Shown here in pieces: positions 39,259 through 63,997 of a stretch of 64,000 nucleotides of DNA. This stretch comes from Klebsiella sp. RIT-PI-d (GTDB lineage Bacteria > Pseudomonadota > Gammaproteobacteria > Enterobacterales > Enterobacteriaceae): assembly GCF_001187865.1 (NCBI RefSeq), contig NZ_LGIT01000001.1, positions 42,554 through 106,553 on the forward strand, read 5' to 3'. The notes beneath the pieces were generated by a model. That model was not told the origin of the DNA. It searched no databases and saw only the letters and a program-made list of their open reading frames with translations. Within the stretch, counting starts at the first letter, position 1; every line of letters starts with the position of its first letter. The translations under genes and the position numbers were made by a program.

Positions 39259-39550
39259 ATCAATTTCCCTTCATTGAATGAATGGAGGTGCCTGAAATAT
39301 CCAGGCGGGTTCGAGTATACACAACGCGAATTGCGGGGAAATAATGAGGAAATAGCGGATGGTATTAACTTAAATTTGGGAAAAGCACATCGATTAATTA
39401 AAATAACTCTATTAATCAATAAATAACAAAAACGTAAATATACGGTTATTCCTAAAAAAAAAGAATGTGATTACTGATGCAGTAATTATTTTCAGATTAT
39501 GCTCAGCACCCGCATTCTCATATTATTGGCTGCAAGAAGAATCATCTGAT

Positions 39551-39581
39551 AAAAAAATACCGGCATCTCGCCGGTATTTTC
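39551..39581. terminator. pgi terminator, bidirectional (A7-TACCGGC-atctc-GCCGGTA-T5)
   Basis: Perfect 7-bp stem flanked by A-run and T-run 13 nt after pgi stop. Confidence 0.65.
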
Positions 39582-39593
39582 TAATGATATATA

Positions 39594-41243: not shown

Positions 41244-41548
41244 GAGCAATACTCTTCAGATATGAGAATTGTAACTGCGGTCGATTGTAGCGCCAGTGAC
41301 GAAAAATTGTGATGGTTTTTATGCCATTGCCCTAACCAGGGGGCAAGAACGGTTAAAAAAGACAGAGAAAGTATAGCCTTTATAAGTGATTTTTCTGATC
41401 GATCGGGCTGCATGAAAAATCCGCATAACCCCAACGTTGACATCATTCGGCACACCTTTTATTTATGGATAAGGTATTTGCACATGGACCGGTGAGAGTT
41501 CTGCCCTTGTGCGGAGGTCGCCTTCCCACTCTCTGACGCGAGGTTGTT

Positions 41549-42910
41549 ATGACTACTGCTGTTTCCCCGTTTGTTGTTGCCAAATTTGGCGGCACCAGCG
41601 TGGCCAATTTTGATGCCATGAACCACAGTGCGGACGTGGTGCTTGCCGATCCCAGCGTTCGCCTGGTCGTGCTGTCCGCCTCTGCAGGCGTCACTAATTT
41701 GCTGGTGGCGCTGGCTGAAGGCCTGGAAGCCGGGGAACGTTTCGTGAAGCTCGACGCCCTGCGTAAAATTCAGTTCGATATTCTTGAGCGCCTGACCCGT
41801 CCCAATATTATTCGCGAAGAGATCGAGCGCCTGCTGGAAAATATTACCACGCTGGCAGAGGCGGCTTCTCTGGCCACCTCTTTGGCGCTAACCGATGAAC
41901 TGGTTAGCCACGGTGAACTGATGTCCACTCTGCTGTTTGTAGAAATCCTGCGCGAACGTCAGGTGCAGGCGCAGTGGTTTGATGTGCGCAAAGTCATGCG
42001 TACCAGCGATCGTTTTGGTCGCGCCGAACCGGACGTTGCGACACTGGCTGAATTAACCGCTCAACTGCTCGCCCCTCGTCTGGAAGAAGGGCTGGCCATC
42101 ACTCAGGGATTTATTGGCAGCGAAGCCAAAGGCCGCACTACCACGCTCGGGCGTGGCGGCAGTGATTACACCGCAGCCCTGCTGGCCGAAGCCCTTCATG
42201 CCACCCGCGTTGATATCTGGACGGATGTCCCCGGCATCTACACCACAGACCCGCGCGTCGTGCCCACCGCCAGACGTATTGATGAAATCGCCTTTGAAGA
42301 AGCGGCCGAAATGGCCACCTTCGGTGCGAAAGTGCTGCATCCGGCGACGCTGCTTCCCGCCGTACGTAGCGATATCCCGGTGTTTGTTGGCTCCAGTAAA
42401 GATCCCAAAGCGGGCGGCACACTGGTCTGTAATAAAACGCAAAATCCGCCGCTGTTCCGGGCGCTGGCGCTGCGACGCAAACAAACGCTGTTAACCCTGC
42501 ACAGCCTGAATATGCTGCATTCTCACGGCTTTCTCGCCGAGCTTTTTGGCATTCTGGCGCGGCATAATATTTCGGTAGATTTGATTACCACCTCAGAAGT
42601 CAGCGTCGCGTTAACACTGGATACCACCGGTTCGACCTCTACCGGCGATACCTTGCTGACGCAGGCATTGCTGACTGAGCTGTCGTCGCTTTGTCGGGTA
42701 GAAGTGGAGGAGGATTTGGCCCTGGTCGCGCTGATTGGCAACAACCTCTCCAAAGCCTGCGGCGTGGGCAAAGAGGTCTTTGGCGTGATGGAGCCGTTTA
42801 ATATCCGCATGATTTGCTATGGCGCATCCAGCTATAACCTGTGCTTCCTGGTACCGGGGAACGAAGCAGAAGAGGTCATCCGCAAATTGCATTACAACTT
42901 ATTTGATTAA
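41549..42910 (+). CDS. lysC: Lysine-sensitive aspartokinase III LysC (453 aa)
   Basis: High identity to E. coli LysC incl. ACT domains. Confidence 0.95.
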   Translation: MTTAVSPFVVAKFGGTSVANFDAMNHSADVVLADPSVRLVVLSASAGVTNLLVALAEGLEAGERFVKLDALRKIQFDILERLTRPNIIREEIERLLENITTLAEAASLATSLALTDELVSHGELMSTLLFVEILRERQVQAQWFDVRKVMRTSDRFGRAEPDVATLAELTAQLLAPRLEEGLAITQGFIGSEAKGRTTTLGRGGSDYTAALLAEALHATRVDIWTDVPGIYTTDPRVVPTARRIDEIAFEEAAEMATFGAKVLHPATLLPAVRSDIPVFVGSSKDPKAGGTLVCNKTQNPPLFRALALRRKQTLLTLHSLNMLHSHGFLAELFGILARHNISVDLITTSEVSVALTLDTTGSTSTGDTLLTQALLTELSSLCRVEVEEDLALVALIGNNLSKACGVGKEVFGVMEPFNIRMICYGASSYNLCFLVPGNEAEEVIRKLHYNLFD

Positions 42911-42919
42911 TCTGCCGCT

Positions 42920-42943
42920 GGCGTATAGCAAGGGCTATACGCC
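42920..42943. terminator. Perfect 10-bp hairpin GGCGTATAGC-aagg-GCTATACGCC between convergent lysC and SPFH gene (no U-tract; possible Rho-dependent/stability element)
   Basis: Seen directly; lacks T-run so not a canonical intrinsic terminator. Confidence 0.4.
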
Positions 42944-42960
42944 ATGTCCGGCACGGTTTA

Positions 42961-44097
42961 TCAGGCTGCGCCGTTGATATTCACCAGGCCGTGCAGCACC
43001 TGATCAAGACCACCGAAGACTGAGATTTTATCAATCCGTTCCGCTACGCGCTCCAGCGTTTCCAGCTCTTTAAGCCGCAATGCGACCGGGTTGCTCTCCA
43101 TCACTTTGGCCGTATTCAACAGCGAACGCGTCGCCGCCGTCTCTTCCCGTCGACGAATAACGTTAGCCTGGGCGGATTTCTCCGCTTCCACCAGTTTAGT
43201 CAGGATAGTTTTCATATCGCCCGGCAGCACGATATCTTTCACGCCCAGCGACGCAACCGTCATCCCAAAAGGTGTCATCCGCTCTGTAACCTGCTGGCTA
43301 ACCACCTCGTCAATCACCTGCTTATCCTCCAGCAGCTCATCCAGCGTTCGCGTTCCCACCGCTTCACGCAGCGCGAACTGTAATTCACGGTAGAGGTGAT
43401 CGACGGGTTTGGTTAACTGGCTGAACGCCTGCAATACATCGCTGTAGCACCAGTTTGCCGCCAGATTAAGGCGTAAATTGACTTTATCGCGGGTCAGAAT
43501 TTCCTGGCCTGACACTTCCAGCACCTGCAAACGTAAATCGACGATCTCTGCCTCTACCAGATGGTTCACTTTCCAGTAAGCAGACAGACCCGGCGATAAT
43601 AACGGGCGGGTTTCACCGTCGATTTTTACCACCCCGGCATGCCAGGCGGGGACATTGACCGTCAGGATATTCTCGCGTCCTTTCACAACATTGTCGCGAT
43701 TTCGGGGTTGCAAAACGGCCTGCATAATATCATCTGGCACCTGGACATTACGCGTATCTATCCGCATCAGGCGCAGGTTATCGCCCTCCTGCCAGAACAG
43801 ACGACGCGAGGCTGGCGGGATAATTTCCAGCAGTACGTTATGCAAATACAGCGCGGCAGCTTCATGTTCGCCGGTATCAGCCACCAGGCAATATTTTTCA
43901 ACCCACTGCGGGTGGAAACGGCGCAGCGTGTCGCTTAAATCGTCAGGCACTTCGTTGCCATCACGCGCAACCAGTGTCACCTCAGGGCGGGTAAACCACG
44001 GCATACGGTGCTCGCCTGTTTCCAGAATCTGATAGTAGTCGCCGTCTTTTGCCAGTAATCCTAACTGGCCGTTACGTATTTTGATTTTTTTATTCAT
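42961..44097 (-). CDS. Cytoplasmic SPFH/band-7 (slipin/flotillin-like) domain protein with ~140-aa N-terminal extension, 378 aa
   Basis: SPFH core and characteristic C-terminal ...AEKSAQANVIRRREETAATRSL...NPVALRLKELETLERVAE motif; no N-terminal TM segment; driven by sigma-54 promoter. Confidence 0.7.
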   Translation of the reverse strand: MNKKIKIRNGQLGLLAKDGDYYQILETGEHRMPWFTRPEVTLVARDGNEVPDDLSDTLRRFHPQWVEKYCLVADTGEHEAAALYLHNVLLEIIPPASRRLFWQEGDNLRLMRIDTRNVQVPDDIMQAVLQPRNRDNVVKGRENILTVNVPAWHAGVVKIDGETRPLLSPGLSAYWKVNHLVEAEIVDLRLQVLEVSGQEILTRDKVNLRLNLAANWCYSDVLQAFSQLTKPVDHLYRELQFALREAVGTRTLDELLEDKQVIDEVVSQQVTERMTPFGMTVASLGVKDIVLPGDMKTILTKLVEAEKSAQANVIRRREETAATRSLLNTAKVMESNPVALRLKELETLERVAERIDKISVFGGLDQVLHGLVNINGAA

Positions 44098-44100
44098 TTT

Positions 44101-44420
44101 AGTGTTCCTTTATCTATCAATGCCGGGGCGGGTGCAGCGGCGAAGTCGTCGGGAAATCGCCACACACTGCCTGACGATTTTGCCGACAACCCGGCAGCAT
44201 TACCGGCTCCGGCCTGAGGCGATCCTGACTGCGGATCGCCGGGTATTACGGATATAAACAACCAGTGTTCACCTGAAGGGCGAATGCGGGAATCGAACCC
44301 GCGTTAACCATTTTTTCGCGTATGTCTTTCCGCTGGCGGAACGCGTCGTGGATAACGGCCTGTGCCGTTCCCGAAGCGCCGGCGGGGCTGATATCCCCTG
44401 CGTAACCCGGCGTGCTGACT
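44101..44420 (-). ncRNA. Candidate structured ~320-nt 5' leader / ncRNA downstream of sigma-54 promoter containing a tRNA T-arm mimic (GCGGG-TTCGATT-CCCGC at 44286-44302) and several GC-rich hairpins (e.g. GGCGATCC-gcagtca-GGATCGCC at 44218-44241)
   Basis: Perfect 5-bp T-stem plus canonical 7-nt T-loop TTCGATT on the minus strand; no matching full tRNA; unusually long GC-rich untranslated region between promoter and ATG. Confidence 0.3.
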
Positions 44421-44430
44421 ATCATGGTAT

Positions 44431-44446
44431 TGCCAGAAGCGTGCCA
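44431..44446 (-). promoter_or_regulatory. Sigma-54 (-24/-12) promoter TGGCACGCTTCTGGCA reading toward the SPFH gene
   Basis: 15/16 match to TGGCACG-N4-TTGCA with GG-N10-GC spacing; divergent from an RtcR-family activator gene as at rtcR-rtcBA. Confidence 0.6.
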
Positions 44447-44581
44447 AAAAGTAATTTCAGCAGGTTTATTTTTTAACTACTTGATAAAATTCGATTTTAT
44501 TCTGACTTAAATTATTGCTTTAAAATAAGAGGAGATGCTGGGATTATCTTTTAAAATCGTTATTTATTTTTAAGGATAGAA

Positions 44582-46165
44582 ATGCAAAAGCGGCGGGTGG
44601 TCATCGGCGTAGTGGGAACGGTACTGGATAAACGCGGGAAGCGCGCTAATCGCTGGGCAAAATGGCGGCCTACTGTCGGACTCTGCCAGCAGCCGGACCT
44701 GCCCGTTGATCGTCTGGAGCTGCTTTATCAGGCCAAAGATCGCGGCATGGCGGAGCAGCTGAGTGCAGATATCCGCGACGTATCTCCGCAGACCGATGTA
44801 CAGACACACACGGTGGCGATTGACGATCCGTGGGACTTTGAAGAGGTGTACGCCGCATTTCTCGATTTCGCCCGCCACTACTCTTTTGATACTGATAACG
44901 AAGAGTATCTGGTGCATATCACCACCGGGACCCACGTGGCGCAGATTTGCTGGTTTTTGCTGACCGAGGCACGCTACCTGCCCGCCAGCCTGCTGCAAAC
45001 CGGCCCGTTAAAAAACCGCGATGAGGAAAATAGCGCGGCCGGAACCTATTCGGTTATCGATCTCGATCTCAGTCGCTACGCCACGCTTACCAGCCGTTTT
45101 CAGCACGAACAGCAGCAGTCCGTCTCGTTTTTGAAAAGCGGGATTGATACCCGAAATCCTGCGTTTAACCGTACGATCGCTCAGATTGAGCGCGTGGCCC
45201 TACGTTCAGATGCGCCCATGTTGCTGACGGGTCCTACCGGCGCCGGCAAGTCTTTCCTCGCCAAACGTATCTATCAGCTGCGTCAGTCGCGGCATCTGGT
45301 CGCCGGAAAACTGGTGGCGGTAAACTGCGCAACGCTGCGCGGTGATAACGCGATGTCGACACTATTTGGTCATGTGAAAGGTGCCTTTACCGGCGCGCTT
45401 CAGCCGAGAGCCGGACTACTACGTGAGGCCGACGGCGGGATCCTGTTTCTGGATGAGATTGCAGAGCTGGGGCTGGATGAACAGGCCATGCTGCTGAAAG
45501 CGATAGAAGAGAAAACCTTCTTCCCGTTCGGCTCGGATAAAGAGGTGCGCAGTGATTTTCAGCTTATTGCCGGAACCCATCGTGATATGCCAGCGTGGAT
45601 AGCTGAAGGCCGCTTCCGGGAAGATCTGTACTCGCGTATTAATATGTGGAATTTTGCCCTGCCGGGGCTGGCGGAGCGGCGGGAGGATATTGCGCCTAAC
45701 GTAGAGTATGAATTGCAACGTTTTGAGGCGAACCACCAGACGCGCGTCCGCTTTGATAAAGAGGCCCGTGACCGCTATATCAACTTTGCGCGTTCTCCTC
45801 AGGCGGTCTGGCGAGGTAATTTCCGTGAGCTGGGTTCTTCTGTTGCGCGCATGGCAACGCTTGCCGAACAGGGACGGATCAGCACAGAACTGGTGGCGGA
45901 AGAGATTGAGCGGCTGAAACAAAACTGGCACCCTGCCACGTCCAGTATTGTTCCGGTCCTGAGTGAAGAAATCGACCTCTTCGACCAGAGCCAGCTGGAA
46001 ACGGTCATTCGCGTCTGCCGTCAGTGTCAGTCGATTTCAGAAGCCGGAAGGCTACTGTTTGCCGTCTCGCGACAGAAAAAAAGTAACCCCAATGATGCCG
46101 ACCGCCTGCGTAAGTACCTCGCACGCTTTGGGCTAAACTGGGAGCGTATACAAGACCTTTCTTAA
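44582..46165 (+). CDS. RtcR-family sigma-54-dependent activator (N-terminal CARF-like domain, AAA+ sigma-54 activator domain with GAFTGA, C-terminal HTH), 527 aa
   Basis: Collinear similarity to E. coli RtcR (WxKWRPT..., HITTGTHVAQICWFLL, GPTGAGKS, GAFTGA, C-terminal DADRLRKYLARFGL); no rtcBA nearby. Confidence 0.85.
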   Translation: MQKRRVVIGVVGTVLDKRGKRANRWAKWRPTVGLCQQPDLPVDRLELLYQAKDRGMAEQLSADIRDVSPQTDVQTHTVAIDDPWDFEEVYAAFLDFARHYSFDTDNEEYLVHITTGTHVAQICWFLLTEARYLPASLLQTGPLKNRDEENSAAGTYSVIDLDLSRYATLTSRFQHEQQQSVSFLKSGIDTRNPAFNRTIAQIERVALRSDAPMLLTGPTGAGKSFLAKRIYQLRQSRHLVAGKLVAVNCATLRGDNAMSTLFGHVKGAFTGALQPRAGLLREADGGILFLDEIAELGLDEQAMLLKAIEEKTFFPFGSDKEVRSDFQLIAGTHRDMPAWIAEGRFREDLYSRINMWNFALPGLAERREDIAPNVEYELQRFEANHQTRVRFDKEARDRYINFARSPQAVWRGNFRELGSSVARMATLAEQGRISTELVAEEIERLKQNWHPATSSIVPVLSEEIDLFDQSQLETVIRVCRQCQSISEAGRLLFAVSRQKKSNPNDADRLRKYLARFGLNWERIQDLS

Positions 46166-46197
46166 CGAGAATATTTGCCCCGGATGCCTGCGCACTA

Positions 46198-46764
46198 TTA
46201 CGCCAGGCCGCCGGGAATAATCTTCGGCTGTATTTTGCAAATATAAGTAGCGCAATCCGGAATATCAGATAACACCAGTGACATGGCACCCACAGTCACA
46301 TTATGACCAATATGTATATTGCCTAAAATACATGCGCCGGCACCAATATTGACATTATCGCCTATTGTTGCTGCGGCTTTATCATCGTCTTTTCGCAGTC
46401 CAATGGTCACGTTTTGATAGATAATAGCGTTATTGCCAATGATCGATTTCCCCGAGATAACGACGCCCGTCAGGTGTACAAACTTAGGGTTGAAGCCAAT
46501 CGTGGCGCGCAATGCGACATCGGAAGCATAACGCCGTTGCAGTGACCAGTTAATTTTCTTTGCGACCCGCTTTTGCCGCGAATTTCCCAGACGATGCATT
46601 TGACTGGCCAGTCGCCACCATAATAAAAAGTGCCGGTTCCGGTTCTTATGGGCGATATACAAACGAAAGGGGTTAATTCTTTTTTTTCCGGTGATTTCTG
46701 CACGCCAGAACGATTTTAAGTCAGCACTTCTTTTCGACAGCAGAAACAAAAAAATCTGAATCAT
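46198..46764 (-). CDS. Small CysE/WcaB-like hexapeptide-repeat O-acetyltransferase (133-188 aa depending on start)
   Basis: LbH hexapeptide repeats (IGDNVNIGAGACILGNIHIGHNVTVGAMSLV) and SAT-like N-terminal helix (HFLLWWRLASQMHR); AT-rich, non-core. Confidence 0.6.
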   Translation of the reverse strand: MIQIFLFLLSKRSADLKSFWRAEITGKKRINPFRLYIAHKNRNRHFLLWWRLASQMHRLGNSRQKRVAKKINWSLQRRYASDVALRATIGFNPKFVHLTGVVISGKSIIGNNAIIYQNVTIGLRKDDDKAAATIGDNVNIGAGACILGNIHIGHNVTVGAMSLVLSDIPDCATYICKIQPKIIPGGLA

Positions 46765-46917
46765 CTCTTCTTAACTTTTCCGTGGCGTAATCATTGATAA
46801 CAGTGTGGATGAAGTCCGTCCCCGGTGCAAAACAAAGTCGCCTGGCTCGCCGACATGAATCCTCTTCATCATAATTTGTTTGAATAAAATCTCACCGCAC
46901 GATAAACATTACCTATG

Positions 46918-46943
46918 GCCGGGCTCGATCCCGGCTTTTTTTA
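46918..46943 (+). terminator. Intrinsic-terminator-like hairpin GGCCGGG-ctcgat-CCCGGC + T7 inside the 5' leader of the panS-like gene (candidate attenuator)
   Basis: GC stem followed by TTTTTTT 38 nt upstream of the transporter ATG; no upstream plus-strand gene to terminate. Confidence 0.4.
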
Positions 46944-46981
46944 TAAAAAACACAATGCACAACCTCCTTAAGGAAAACACA

Positions 46982-47908
46982 ATGCTCTCCATTCTGACCC
47001 GGCTGTTCCCGCTCTGGGCGCTGCTGCTCTCCGTTATCGCGTATTACACGCCTGCGACGTTTGTGCCTGTTGGCCCATGGGTAAGTACCCTGCTGATGCT
47101 GATTATGTTTGGTATGGGTGTGCATTTGACCTTTGCCGATTTTAAACGCGTGCTGTCGCGTCCTGCGCCGGTAGCTGCGGGAATTTTTCTGCACTATCTG
47201 GTTATGCCGCTGGCGGCCTGGCTGCTGGCGCTGCTGTTTAAGATGCCACCGGATCTCTCTGCCGGCATGGTGCTGGTGGGGAGCGTTGCCAGCGGTACCG
47301 CATCCAACGTCATGATTTATCTGGCCAAAGGTGATGTTGCGCTGTCGGTAACTATCTCTTCAGTTTCAACGCTGGTTGGCGTGGTGGCCACACCCTTGTT
47401 GACCCGACTGTATGTGGATACGCATATTCAGGTCGATGTAATGGGTATGCTGTTCAGCATTCTGCAAATCGTGGTCATCCCCATCGCCCTCGGCCTGATA
47501 GTCCACCACCTGTTCCCGCGCGTGGTGCGGGCGATAGAACCGTATCTGCCGGCTTTTTCAATGGTGTGTATTCTGGCGATCATCAGCGCCGTGGTGGCGG
47601 GAAGCGCCAGCCATATTGCCTCGGTTGGGCTGGTGGTGATTATCGCGGTGATCCTGCATAACACTATCGGGCTACTTGGAGGCTACTGGGGCGGAAGATT
47701 GTTTGGTTTTGATGAGTCAACCTGCCGCACGCTGGCGATTGAAGTCGGCATGCAAAACTCCGGTCTTGCTGCCGCGCTCGGTAAAATCTACTTCTCGCCA
47801 CTGGCCGCTCTGCCCGGCGCGCTGTTCTCGGTATGGCACAACCTTTCAGGTTCGCTGCTGGCAGGGTACTGGTCCGGTAAGCCGGTTGATCAAAAGAAAC
47901 GCCGCTAA
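46982..47908 (+). CDS. panS: Bile-acid:sodium symporter (BASS) family transporter, PanS-like (308 aa from MLSILTRLF; ORF-track start 46880 probably too early)
   Basis: BASS family 9-10 TM protein; SD AAGGA 7 nt upstream of ATG 46982; PanS (STM4195) of Salmonella is a BASS transporter encoded near metH. Confidence 0.65.
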
Positions 47909-63877: not shown

Positions 63878-63997
63878 ATGCCTGGCAGTTCCCTACTCTC
63901 GCATGGGGAGACCCCACACTACCATCGGCGCTACGGCGTTTCACTTCTGAGTTCGGCATGGGGTCAGGTGGGACCGCCGCGCTAGTGCCGCCAGGCA
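63878..63997 (-). rRNA. rrfE: 5S ribosomal RNA (rrf; rrnE-equivalent by synteny with yjaA/metA), complete 120 nt; rest of operon lies beyond window end
   Basis: Reverse complement reads TGCCTGGCGGC...GGGAACTGCCAGGCAT, the enterobacterial 5S rRNA sequence. Confidence 0.9.

Follow-up and report, generated by a model that had tools for sequence, protein, structure and literature searches.

We analysed a 64,000-nucleotide stretch of Klebsiella sp. RIT-PI-d DNA (contig NZ_LGIT01000001.1, positions 42,554 to 106,553; hereafter, the window), in which two divergent genes lie between yjbD and lysC. One is rtcR, which encodes an enhancer-binding activator of sigma-54-dependent transcription; the other encodes a soluble SPFH (Band-7) protein, here termed slipin, since proteins of this family are named "slipin family protein" in our sources. 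The slipin gene is preceded by a sigma-54 promoter and a long structured leader, and it is the single coding sequence downstream of that promoter. The sequence features listed in an initial annotation of this DNA, namely RtcR, the divergent sigma-54 promoter, the structured leader and the anchorless SPFH protein, were all recovered. We consider it likely that together they form an Rtc RNA-repair operon of the slipin (Band-7) type in reduced form. The operon type itself is already known (it was predicted in 2016) and is still uncharacterised; the window contains an enzyme-less variant of it. What is new here is the selection-maintained enzyme-less state, the covariation-supported model of the leader and the repeat nature of the slipin N-terminus, although some of these details may already be described in Burroughs & Aravind 2016.

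Regulator, promoter and SPFH protein

The product of rtcR (527 amino acids) is collinear with RtcR and contains a CARF domain, as initially proposed. The RtcR/CARF profile (PF06956) matched amino acids 3-187 over model positions 1-183 of 183 (E = 3.4e-85), and the Sigma54_activat profile (PF00158) matched amino acids 190-357 (E = 2.1e-48); AAA_lid_14 was also matched, and both the Walker A motif GPTGAGKS and the GAFTGA motif are seen in the translation. The NCBIfam equivalog model for RtcR (NF038308, cut-off 650 bits) gave 833.7 bits over model positions 2-528 of 530, and the PADLOC model RtcR--CARF_AAA_HTH gave 877 bits. In two contigs with 88% slipin identity (L011 and L014), rtcR is split into pieces of 471 and 34 amino acids by an apparent frameshift; it is intact in the sister contigs L012 and L013.

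The sigma-54 promoter motif proposed upstream of slipin is real, although its occurrence alone would not tell. Allowing one mismatch, TGGCAC-N5-TTGCW occurs 5 times in the window against 2.98 +/- 1.81 expected, a count that is not above chance. The call is based instead on position and on near-invariance across genera: the motif TGGCACG-N4-TGGCA is nearly invariant in Enterobacterales leaders, with variation in the 4-nt spacer, it is also present in several betaproteobacterial slipin loci, and the leader-slipin loci of E. coli keep it with one change. Transcription would start near 44420, and RtcR is expected to activate this conserved divergent promoter. The AT-rich region between promoter and rtcR, which contains conserved blocks, presumably holds the rtcR promoter and putative sites for RtcR and integration host factor (IHF).

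Slipin (378 amino acids) matched the Band_7 profile (PF01145) at amino acids 148-319 (E = 2.3e-24). No transmembrane helix was predicted in it, its highest 19-residue Kyte-Doolittle mean being 1.03, and no gene for an NfeD partner lies between slipin and lysC; the initial assignment as an SPFH protein without a membrane anchor thus stands. The family is large, with about 528 clusters at 50% identity and E < 1e-30. An AlphaFold2 (AF2) model built from a 26-sequence alignment had a mean predicted local distance difference test score (pLDDT) of 83, with helices at residues 293-335 and 337-356. The top Foldseek matches to this model in the PDB were stomatin, HflK/C and prohibitin (E 1e-15 to 1e-10). 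Erlin and QmcA were matched as well, and every one of these proteins forms rings or cages. Like these ring-building SPFH proteins, slipin has an SPFH domain followed by long helices, and its own oligomerisation is predicted.

The N-terminal domain of approximately 140 residues had been delimited correctly in the initial annotation, but it is no longer unassigned. In profile-profile comparisons, residues 1-69 and 70-135 were homologous to each other and to slipin's own first SPFH beta-module (probability 97-98%), by which the N-terminal domain is two extra copies of that module. Slipin variants of about 500-530 amino acids, found at five of the surveyed loci, have a third N-terminal copy. Foldseek also matched slipin to the major vault protein (MVP) in long alignments (E about 4e-11). 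The model, with its repeats, SPFH shoulder and long helix, has a layout that resembles a miniature MVP. This is a resemblance only: no Vault profile in Pfam matched slipin, and neither vault repeats nor an MVP shoulder was found by that search. The eukaryotic vault particle, composed of MVP and vault RNA, is listed here as a related system by structural likeness and not by a sequence profile match.

Table 1. Features of the rtcR-slipin locus (positions in the window)
Feature	Position	Strand	Details	Basis
Inverted repeat in the 50-bp slipin/lysC gap	42920..42943		10 bp; GGCGTATAGC..GCTATACGCC	
slipin, soluble SPFH/Band-7 protein	42961..44097	-	378 amino acids	Pfam, AF2, Foldseek
Slipin SPFH domain	43141-43656	-	amino acids 148-319	PF01145
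Slipin N-terminal beta-module repeat 2	43678-43890	-	amino acids 70-140	profile-profile comparison
Slipin N-terminal beta-module repeat 1	43891-44097	-	amino acids 1-69	profile-profile comparison
Slipin long C-terminal helices		-	amino acids 293 to 372	AF2 model
Leader, long 3' hairpin	44123..44212	-	variable tip, no U-tract after it	17 of 25 pairs compensatory
Leader, short conserved hairpin	44213..44243	-	CCCGGCGAUCC GCAGUCA GGAUCGCC	compensatory pairs in alignment columns 191-215
Leader, tRNA-like minihelix without anticodon arm	44278..44319	-	acceptor-like stem GCGAA/UUCGC, D-loop-like AAUGGUUAA, T-arm	sequence, covariation
T-arm of the minihelix	44286-44302	-	GCGGG-UUCGAUU-CCCGC	read in sequence
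Leader 5' domain, three-way junction	44330..44412	-	outer helix, hairpin GCAGGGG..CCCCGC, long bulged hairpin; motif CCCCGCCGGYGC	RNAalifold, covariation
Sigma-54 promoter	44431..44446	-	TGGCAC-GCTTC-TGGCA (-24 GG / -12 GC), sequence TGGCACGCTTCTGGCA	conserved motif
AT-rich divergent control region	44447..44581		conserved blocks TTATCC..AAAGATAAA	alignments
rtcR, sigma-54 enhancer-binding activator	44582..46165	+	527 amino acids	Pfam, NCBIfam, PADLOC matches
RtcR/CARF domain	about 44588-45142	+		PF06956
AAA+ sigma-54 interaction domain	about 45149-45652	+	followed by C-terminal lid and helix-turn-helix (HTH)	PF00158

Gene loss at the yjbD-lysC site

The 2016 abstract of Burroughs and Aravind reportedly proposes an SPFH/Band-7 module and a novel tRNA-like molecule as scaffolding cofactors, and RlaP (PF10127) is said to have been named in the same paper. 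RlaP has since been found to extend the 3' ends of damaged RNA by one or two nucleotides. Two sources (bioRxiv 10.1101/312249; PMC12776372) credit Burroughs & Aravind, NAR 2016, with an association in which RtcB is encoded beside both a predicted b7a-tRNA and a Band-7 protein, and by its sequence the operon in the window appears to match it. As in these Band-7/b7a-tRNA/RtcB systems, a soluble Band-7 protein is encoded next to RtcR with a candidate tRNA-like RNA upstream; the leader RNAs are homologous, and slipin is 45-88% identical to proteins of rtcB-containing loci, i.e., a member of the same family. Unlike them, the window has no rtcB, no rlaP and no tRNA-like gene that ARAGORN can call; the 5' domain of the leader and a minihelix without an anticodon arm remain. 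RlaP is frequent but not universal in Band-7 systems, and the nearest species has it.

The absence of rtcB and rtcA noted initially was confirmed: in tblastn searches with Pfam-verified queries, RtcB, RtcA and RlaP had no match in the whole window, which thus has neither an rtcB/rtcA operon adjacent to rtcR nor an RtcB ligase gene in the slipin operon. This result covers 64 kb; as another part of the genome may hold an rtcBA operon, 64 kb cannot decide whether this RtcR is an orphan. No Rfam match to a Y RNA was found in 42000-47000 (E <= 1), and rsr was not queried by protein.

The initial annotation viewed the SPFH protein as a novel effector in place of RtcBA and the locus as a new wiring of RtcR. 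A survey of genomic context around slipin in 80 species-representative genomes settled the operon type and supports neither view. Slipin orthologues adjoin rtcR and rtcB in other genomes. Adequate flanking sequence was available for 61 loci, and a divergent rtcR is present in 39 of these (37 in the main count and two more). In 33 of the 39 rtcR-adjacent loci the leader-slipin unit is followed by rtcB, often together with rlaP; only rlaP follows in five, and in the remaining one (L045) rtcB lies on the opposite side of rtcR. None of the sampled species has the arrangement of the window, rtcR and slipin only.

Syntenic enterobacterial loci instead form a series of stepwise gene loss, by which the locus is a reduced form of a known operon type. 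The site is defined by yjbD (DUF3811) with an SBF transporter gene on one side and lysC-pgi on the other. Here Franconibacter helveticus has rtcR divergent from slipin-rtcB-rlaP, and Citrobacter amalonaticus has rtcR and leader-slipin-rtcB-rlaP. Leader-slipin-rlaP without rtcB occupies the site in Klebsiella michiganensis/oxytoca, C. freundii, Mangrovibacter and Superficieibacter, and Lonsdalea likewise has the slipin-rlaP gene set (gene content only; the site there was not checked). The slipin-only arrangement is found in the window and in three independent metagenome contigs (L095-L097), as well as in a short contig identical to the window. On the sequence evidence of this series at one site, both rtcB and rlaP have apparently been deleted in the window lineage, and, as the window and L095-L097 all lack rlaP, its deletion predates their split.

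The end point of the last deletion can be placed by comparison with the nearest genome, Superficieibacter sp. 1612_C1 (L015; 88% slipin identity). The two are collinear through the SBF gene, a hexapeptide acetyltransferase gene, rtcR, the leader and slipin, and homology ends at, or a few bases from, the slipin stop codon. Beyond it, L015 has rlaP and P2-like tail genes, whereas the window has a 50-bp spacer and lysC. Slipin and lysC are convergent, the 50 bp separating their stop codons, and the inverted repeat between them is probably a shared terminator; in relatives, this slot is occupied by rtcB and/or rlaP. In Superficieibacter-like genomes (L015 8936-15134; L011-L014), rlaP directly adjoins P2-type genes for tail, baseplate and fibre, at the position taken by lysC in the window, so the rlaP deletion ends where a prophage or tailocin has its boundary.

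The initial annotation also described a non-core island between lysC and yjbD. The location is correct; the panS-like (SBF) gene, however, is not part of a cassette but of the conserved synteny. Between it and rtcR, at 46198-46764 on the minus strand, the window has a gene for a CysE/WcaB-like hexapeptide acetyltransferase, which is present only in the window and the Superficieibacter-like contigs and in none of the Klebsiella, Citrobacter and Franconibacter loci.

The site is also occupied in E. coli. Megablast of the whole locus against E. coli genomes gave no match, which is misleading, because a more divergent version exists: 1,625 of 5,426 complete E. coli genomes (about 30%) have leader-slipin-rlaP at yjbD-lysC with no adjacent rtcR, strains WAT and C2 being examples. 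In CP061233.1 (4472-6925), the sigma-54 promoter (TGGCACGCTTCTCGCA) and the leader are kept, and our covariance model of the leader scores 76.7 bits. The number of rtcR matches per E. coli genome has a median of one and a maximum of three, and those among the matches listed are annotated as rtcR; the single E. coli rtcR we take to be the canonical gene adjoining rtcBA. The gene arrangement suggests that leader-slipin-rlaP in E. coli may be controlled in trans by this distant rtcR. The canonical rtcR-rtcBA locus of E. coli resembles the window in its regulator family (67.5% DNA identity over 83% of the rtcR gene), but it lies at another chromosomal site and has neither slipin nor a long structured leader.

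Two further systems can be compared. In Salmonella, rtcR is likewise divergent from a sigma-54 promoter that transcribes a proposed scaffold protein together with tRNA-mimicking RNA (rsr-yrlBA-rtcBA); the scaffold there is a TROVE/Ro protein with Y RNAs, whereas in the window it is an SPFH protein and no ligase or cyclase is encoded. In P. aeruginosa, an SPFH gene comes first in the RtcR-controlled operon PA4581-PA4585 (rtcR, PA4582/PaFlo8, rtcB, rlaP, rtcA), which differs from the window in having kept all the enzymes. PA4582 was among the genes induced by H2O2 (3.2-fold), as were pyocin genes, and deletion of paFlo8, the only genetic test found for this branch of RNA repair, produced no phenotype in growth, virulence, motility, biofilm and oxidant assays.

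A structured, tRNA-like leader RNA

The leader extends from about 44420 to 44098 on the minus strand; at 323 nt and 59% G+C it is the GC-rich untranslated region that had been described, and the description of it as tRNA-like was correct in substance. Its folding z-score is -2.66. Neither an Rfam family (E <= 1) nor an ARAGORN tRNA was found in 42000-47000; the leader is thus not a catalogued RNA, nor is it a callable tRNA or Y RNA. The enterobacterial leader alignment has conserved blocks with compensatory changes. RNAalifold on 10 Enterobacterales sequences recovered the three-way junction and the T-arm hairpin, with 22 of 31 pairs compensatory. A covariance model trained only on 10 enterobacterial leaders found full-length matches at the equivalent site upstream of slipin in beta- and gammaproteobacteria (E 1e-10 to 1e-4). 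In the resulting 28-sequence alignment, paired cells amount to 93.8%, compared with 73.2% in shuffles, both sides have changed in 30 of the 37 pairs, and the covariation score is 0.511 versus 0.187 in shuffles and at most 0.088 in slid controls, all of these counts coming from a model-fitted alignment, which favours the model structure. Helices 1-7 are 88-99% paired in the same 28 sequences (alignment A9), and most of their pairs changed on both sides; compensatory pairs make up 5/5 of helix 8 (acceptor-like) and 3/5 of helix 9 (T-stem). The leader is therefore a covariation-supported, structured, tRNA-like RNA that has homologues in beta- and gammaproteobacteria and is absent from Rfam.

Outside Enterobacterales, the leader usually has two T-loops, 70-76 nt apart. 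In the downstream element (element 2), the cloverleaf is complete and the anticodon loops are odd. It is called by ARAGORN in most loci; of the six non-enterobacterial loci scanned with the Rfam tRNA model, three pass at this element and a fourth (L036) passes at the upstream element instead. The upstream element (element 1) is usually a mini-tRNA, in which an acceptor stem is combined with a T-arm and a short D-arm whose loop reads UGGU. Judged by its spacing to the CCCCGCCGGYGC motif and by the downstream sequence, the enterobacterial minihelix corresponds to element 1, and the complete tRNA-like gene, element 2, has been lost in Enterobacterales. The converse assignment, of the minihelix to element 2, i.e., to the canonical b7a-tRNA, was rejected: the distance from CCCCGCCGGYGC to the T-loop is about 85 nt, near the 92-115 nt of element 1 elsewhere, and the motif that follows element 2 elsewhere (ACUGGUU..GUA.UACCCGGCG) directly adjoins the enterobacterial element. 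A single expanded cloverleaf, with the junction serving as D and anticodon arms, was also rejected, as the junction is already closed by its outer helix ahead of the T-arm.

In many betaproteobacterial leaders, about 270-390 nt upstream of slipin, the upstream element ends in ...ACCA(C/T) directly before the second one. By sequence, this end resembles an encoded CCA tail, which 5' processing of the following element would set free. In ten slipin loci without rtcR, mostly from metagenome-assembled genomes of Burkholderiales, an array of 5-28 ordinary tRNA genes immediately precedes the tRNA-like elements and slipin, and rtcB often comes after slipin.

Does the leader act as a separate RNA partner of slipin? 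It might be only a cis-acting 5' untranslated region (UTR), a tRNA-mimicking sensor or stability element that controls mRNA decay or the translation of slipin. The leader runs directly into the coding sequence, its long 3' hairpin ends about 25 nt upstream of the slipin Shine-Dalgarno sequence, the enterobacterial version is missing the complete tRNA-like gene, and a processed RNA had never been shown as of the 2018 preprint (bioRxiv 10.1101/312249). Nevertheless, we think a purely cis-acting role rather unlikely. A terminator scan found no terminator-like site or attenuator on the leader strand, and the homologous elements elsewhere resemble free-standing tRNA genes and pass the Rfam tRNA threshold. 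Moreover, an ACCA end directly before the second element is a layout typical of RNAs released by tRNA-processing enzymes, and the analogous Salmonella operon encodes free Y RNAs.

Selection without repair enzymes and a possible role of slipin

The comparison of the window with L095, at about 2% divergence, is informative because both already lack rlaP. Slipin differs by 22 synonymous and 3 nonsynonymous codons and rtcR by 24 and 4, figures identical to those of the housekeeping gene pgi. In the leader, 6 of 323 positions differ, a divergence several-fold (about four-fold) below that of synonymous sites. Over the longer distance to Superficieibacter L015, the ratio of nonsynonymous to synonymous rates (dN/dS) is 0.073 for slipin and 0.067 for rtcR. 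Small as the counts are, they indicate that loss of the enzyme genes did not end purifying selection on rtcR, the leader and slipin.

This bears on the simplest alternative, in which rtcR, the leader and slipin are a decaying relic, functionless since the loss of rtcB and rlaP and heading for deletion. On the one hand, genes have been lost stepwise across relatives, rtcR is frameshifted in two of them, about 70% of E. coli genomes do not have the module at all, and the P. aeruginosa paFlo8 mutant had no phenotype. On the other hand, the reading frames, promoter and RNA helices of the window are all intact, and, since the split within the rlaP-less lineage, slipin and rtcR have the synonymous-to-nonsynonymous proportions of pgi, with the leader diverging even less than synonymous sites. 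A relic is thus improbable.

Another alternative, closer to the initial annotation, is a novel module triggered by RNA damage or by phage, whose SPFH protein would be the effector in its own right and work apart from RNA repair, in abortive infection for instance. PADLOC does include RtcR-like CARF-AAA-HTH regulators, the distribution of the module is accessory and patchy, and the enzyme-less form is under selection. However, no PADLOC model matches slipin and no homologues of it were found in the phage collection, on which grounds a defence system, and with it the proposed phage-triggered role, was dropped. The main genomic partners of slipin are rtcB and rlaP, not toxins or nucleases, and no catalytic or pore-forming domain was predicted in it by Pfam or AF2. 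We regard such an effector module as very improbable.

Within the favoured RNA-repair reading, a mechanism can be proposed by analogy. The CARF domain of Salmonella RtcR binds 5' tRNA halves with a 2',3'-cyclic phosphate end, upon which the protein oligomerises, and Salmonella needs RtcA to generate this ligand. At the locus studied here, tRNA breakage would likewise yield fragments with 2',3'-cyclic phosphate ends, these would bind to RtcR's CARF domain, and the regulator would oligomerise and open the sigma-54 promoter. The leader and slipin would then be produced, and the tRNA-like part of the leader probably released by tRNA-processing enzymes as a stable RNA, which may join slipin subunits assembled into a ring or cage. 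This ribonucleoprotein might scaffold or shield broken tRNA ends for repair enzymes encoded elsewhere, a role akin to that of Ro and Y RNA as proposed for the Salmonella operon. In the window lineage, either such enzymes would be encoded elsewhere or the particle would act alone. The leader-slipin-rlaP loci of E. coli, without adjacent rtcR, fit action in trans.

Several observations weigh against this picture. With net charges of 0 and -2, the N-terminal repeats of slipin are not basic, and there is thus no direct sequence argument for RNA binding by slipin. The window leader has no element of the kind recognised by ARAGORN and the Rfam tRNA model in other lineages, its covariation statistics carry the bias of alignment fitting noted above, and b7a-tRNA was not experimentally validated as of the 2018 preprint (bioRxiv 10.1101/312249). 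RtcA, the source of the RtcR ligand in Salmonella, is absent from the 64 kb. Finally, the frameshifts in L011 and L014 mean that the module can decay.

A more far-reaching idea, possible but on balance doubtful, is that slipin and its co-transcribed tRNA-like RNA assemble, on induction by RtcR, into a cytosolic ribonucleoprotein that is self-sufficient, a small bacterial equivalent of the vault made of stacked SPFH beta-modules, for which no ligase in the operon would be needed. Such a particle might capture or shield broken tRNAs or be a decoy for tRNA-targeting toxins. It would fit the repeated loss of rtcB in enterobacteria, the loss of rlaP here and the local loss of rtcR in about 30% of E. 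coli, in each of which the leader and slipin were kept.

That purifying selection persists on the enzyme-less form suggests that the scaffold-RNA pair is useful in itself or cooperates with enzymes encoded at other loci. Tractable Enterobacteriaceae offer naturally minimised versions of the system, either regulator, RNA and scaffold or RNA, scaffold and RlaP without a local regulator. This makes the scaffold role directly testable, with the leader model and the N-terminal repeats as concrete experimental handles.

Some minor features lie outside the locus. In the pgi-lysC spacer (41250-41548, the 299 nt upstream of lysC), no lysine riboswitch was found either at the Rfam gathering threshold or at E <= 10, and none was found upstream of lysC in L095 and C. 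freundii; among the five genomes compared, RF00168 is present there in E. coli, K. michiganensis and Franconibacter. Rfam also places the enterobacterial small RNA STnc430 at 39428-39588 on the plus strand, adjoining pgi, and a 5S rRNA gene at the edge of the window (63880-63995, minus strand).

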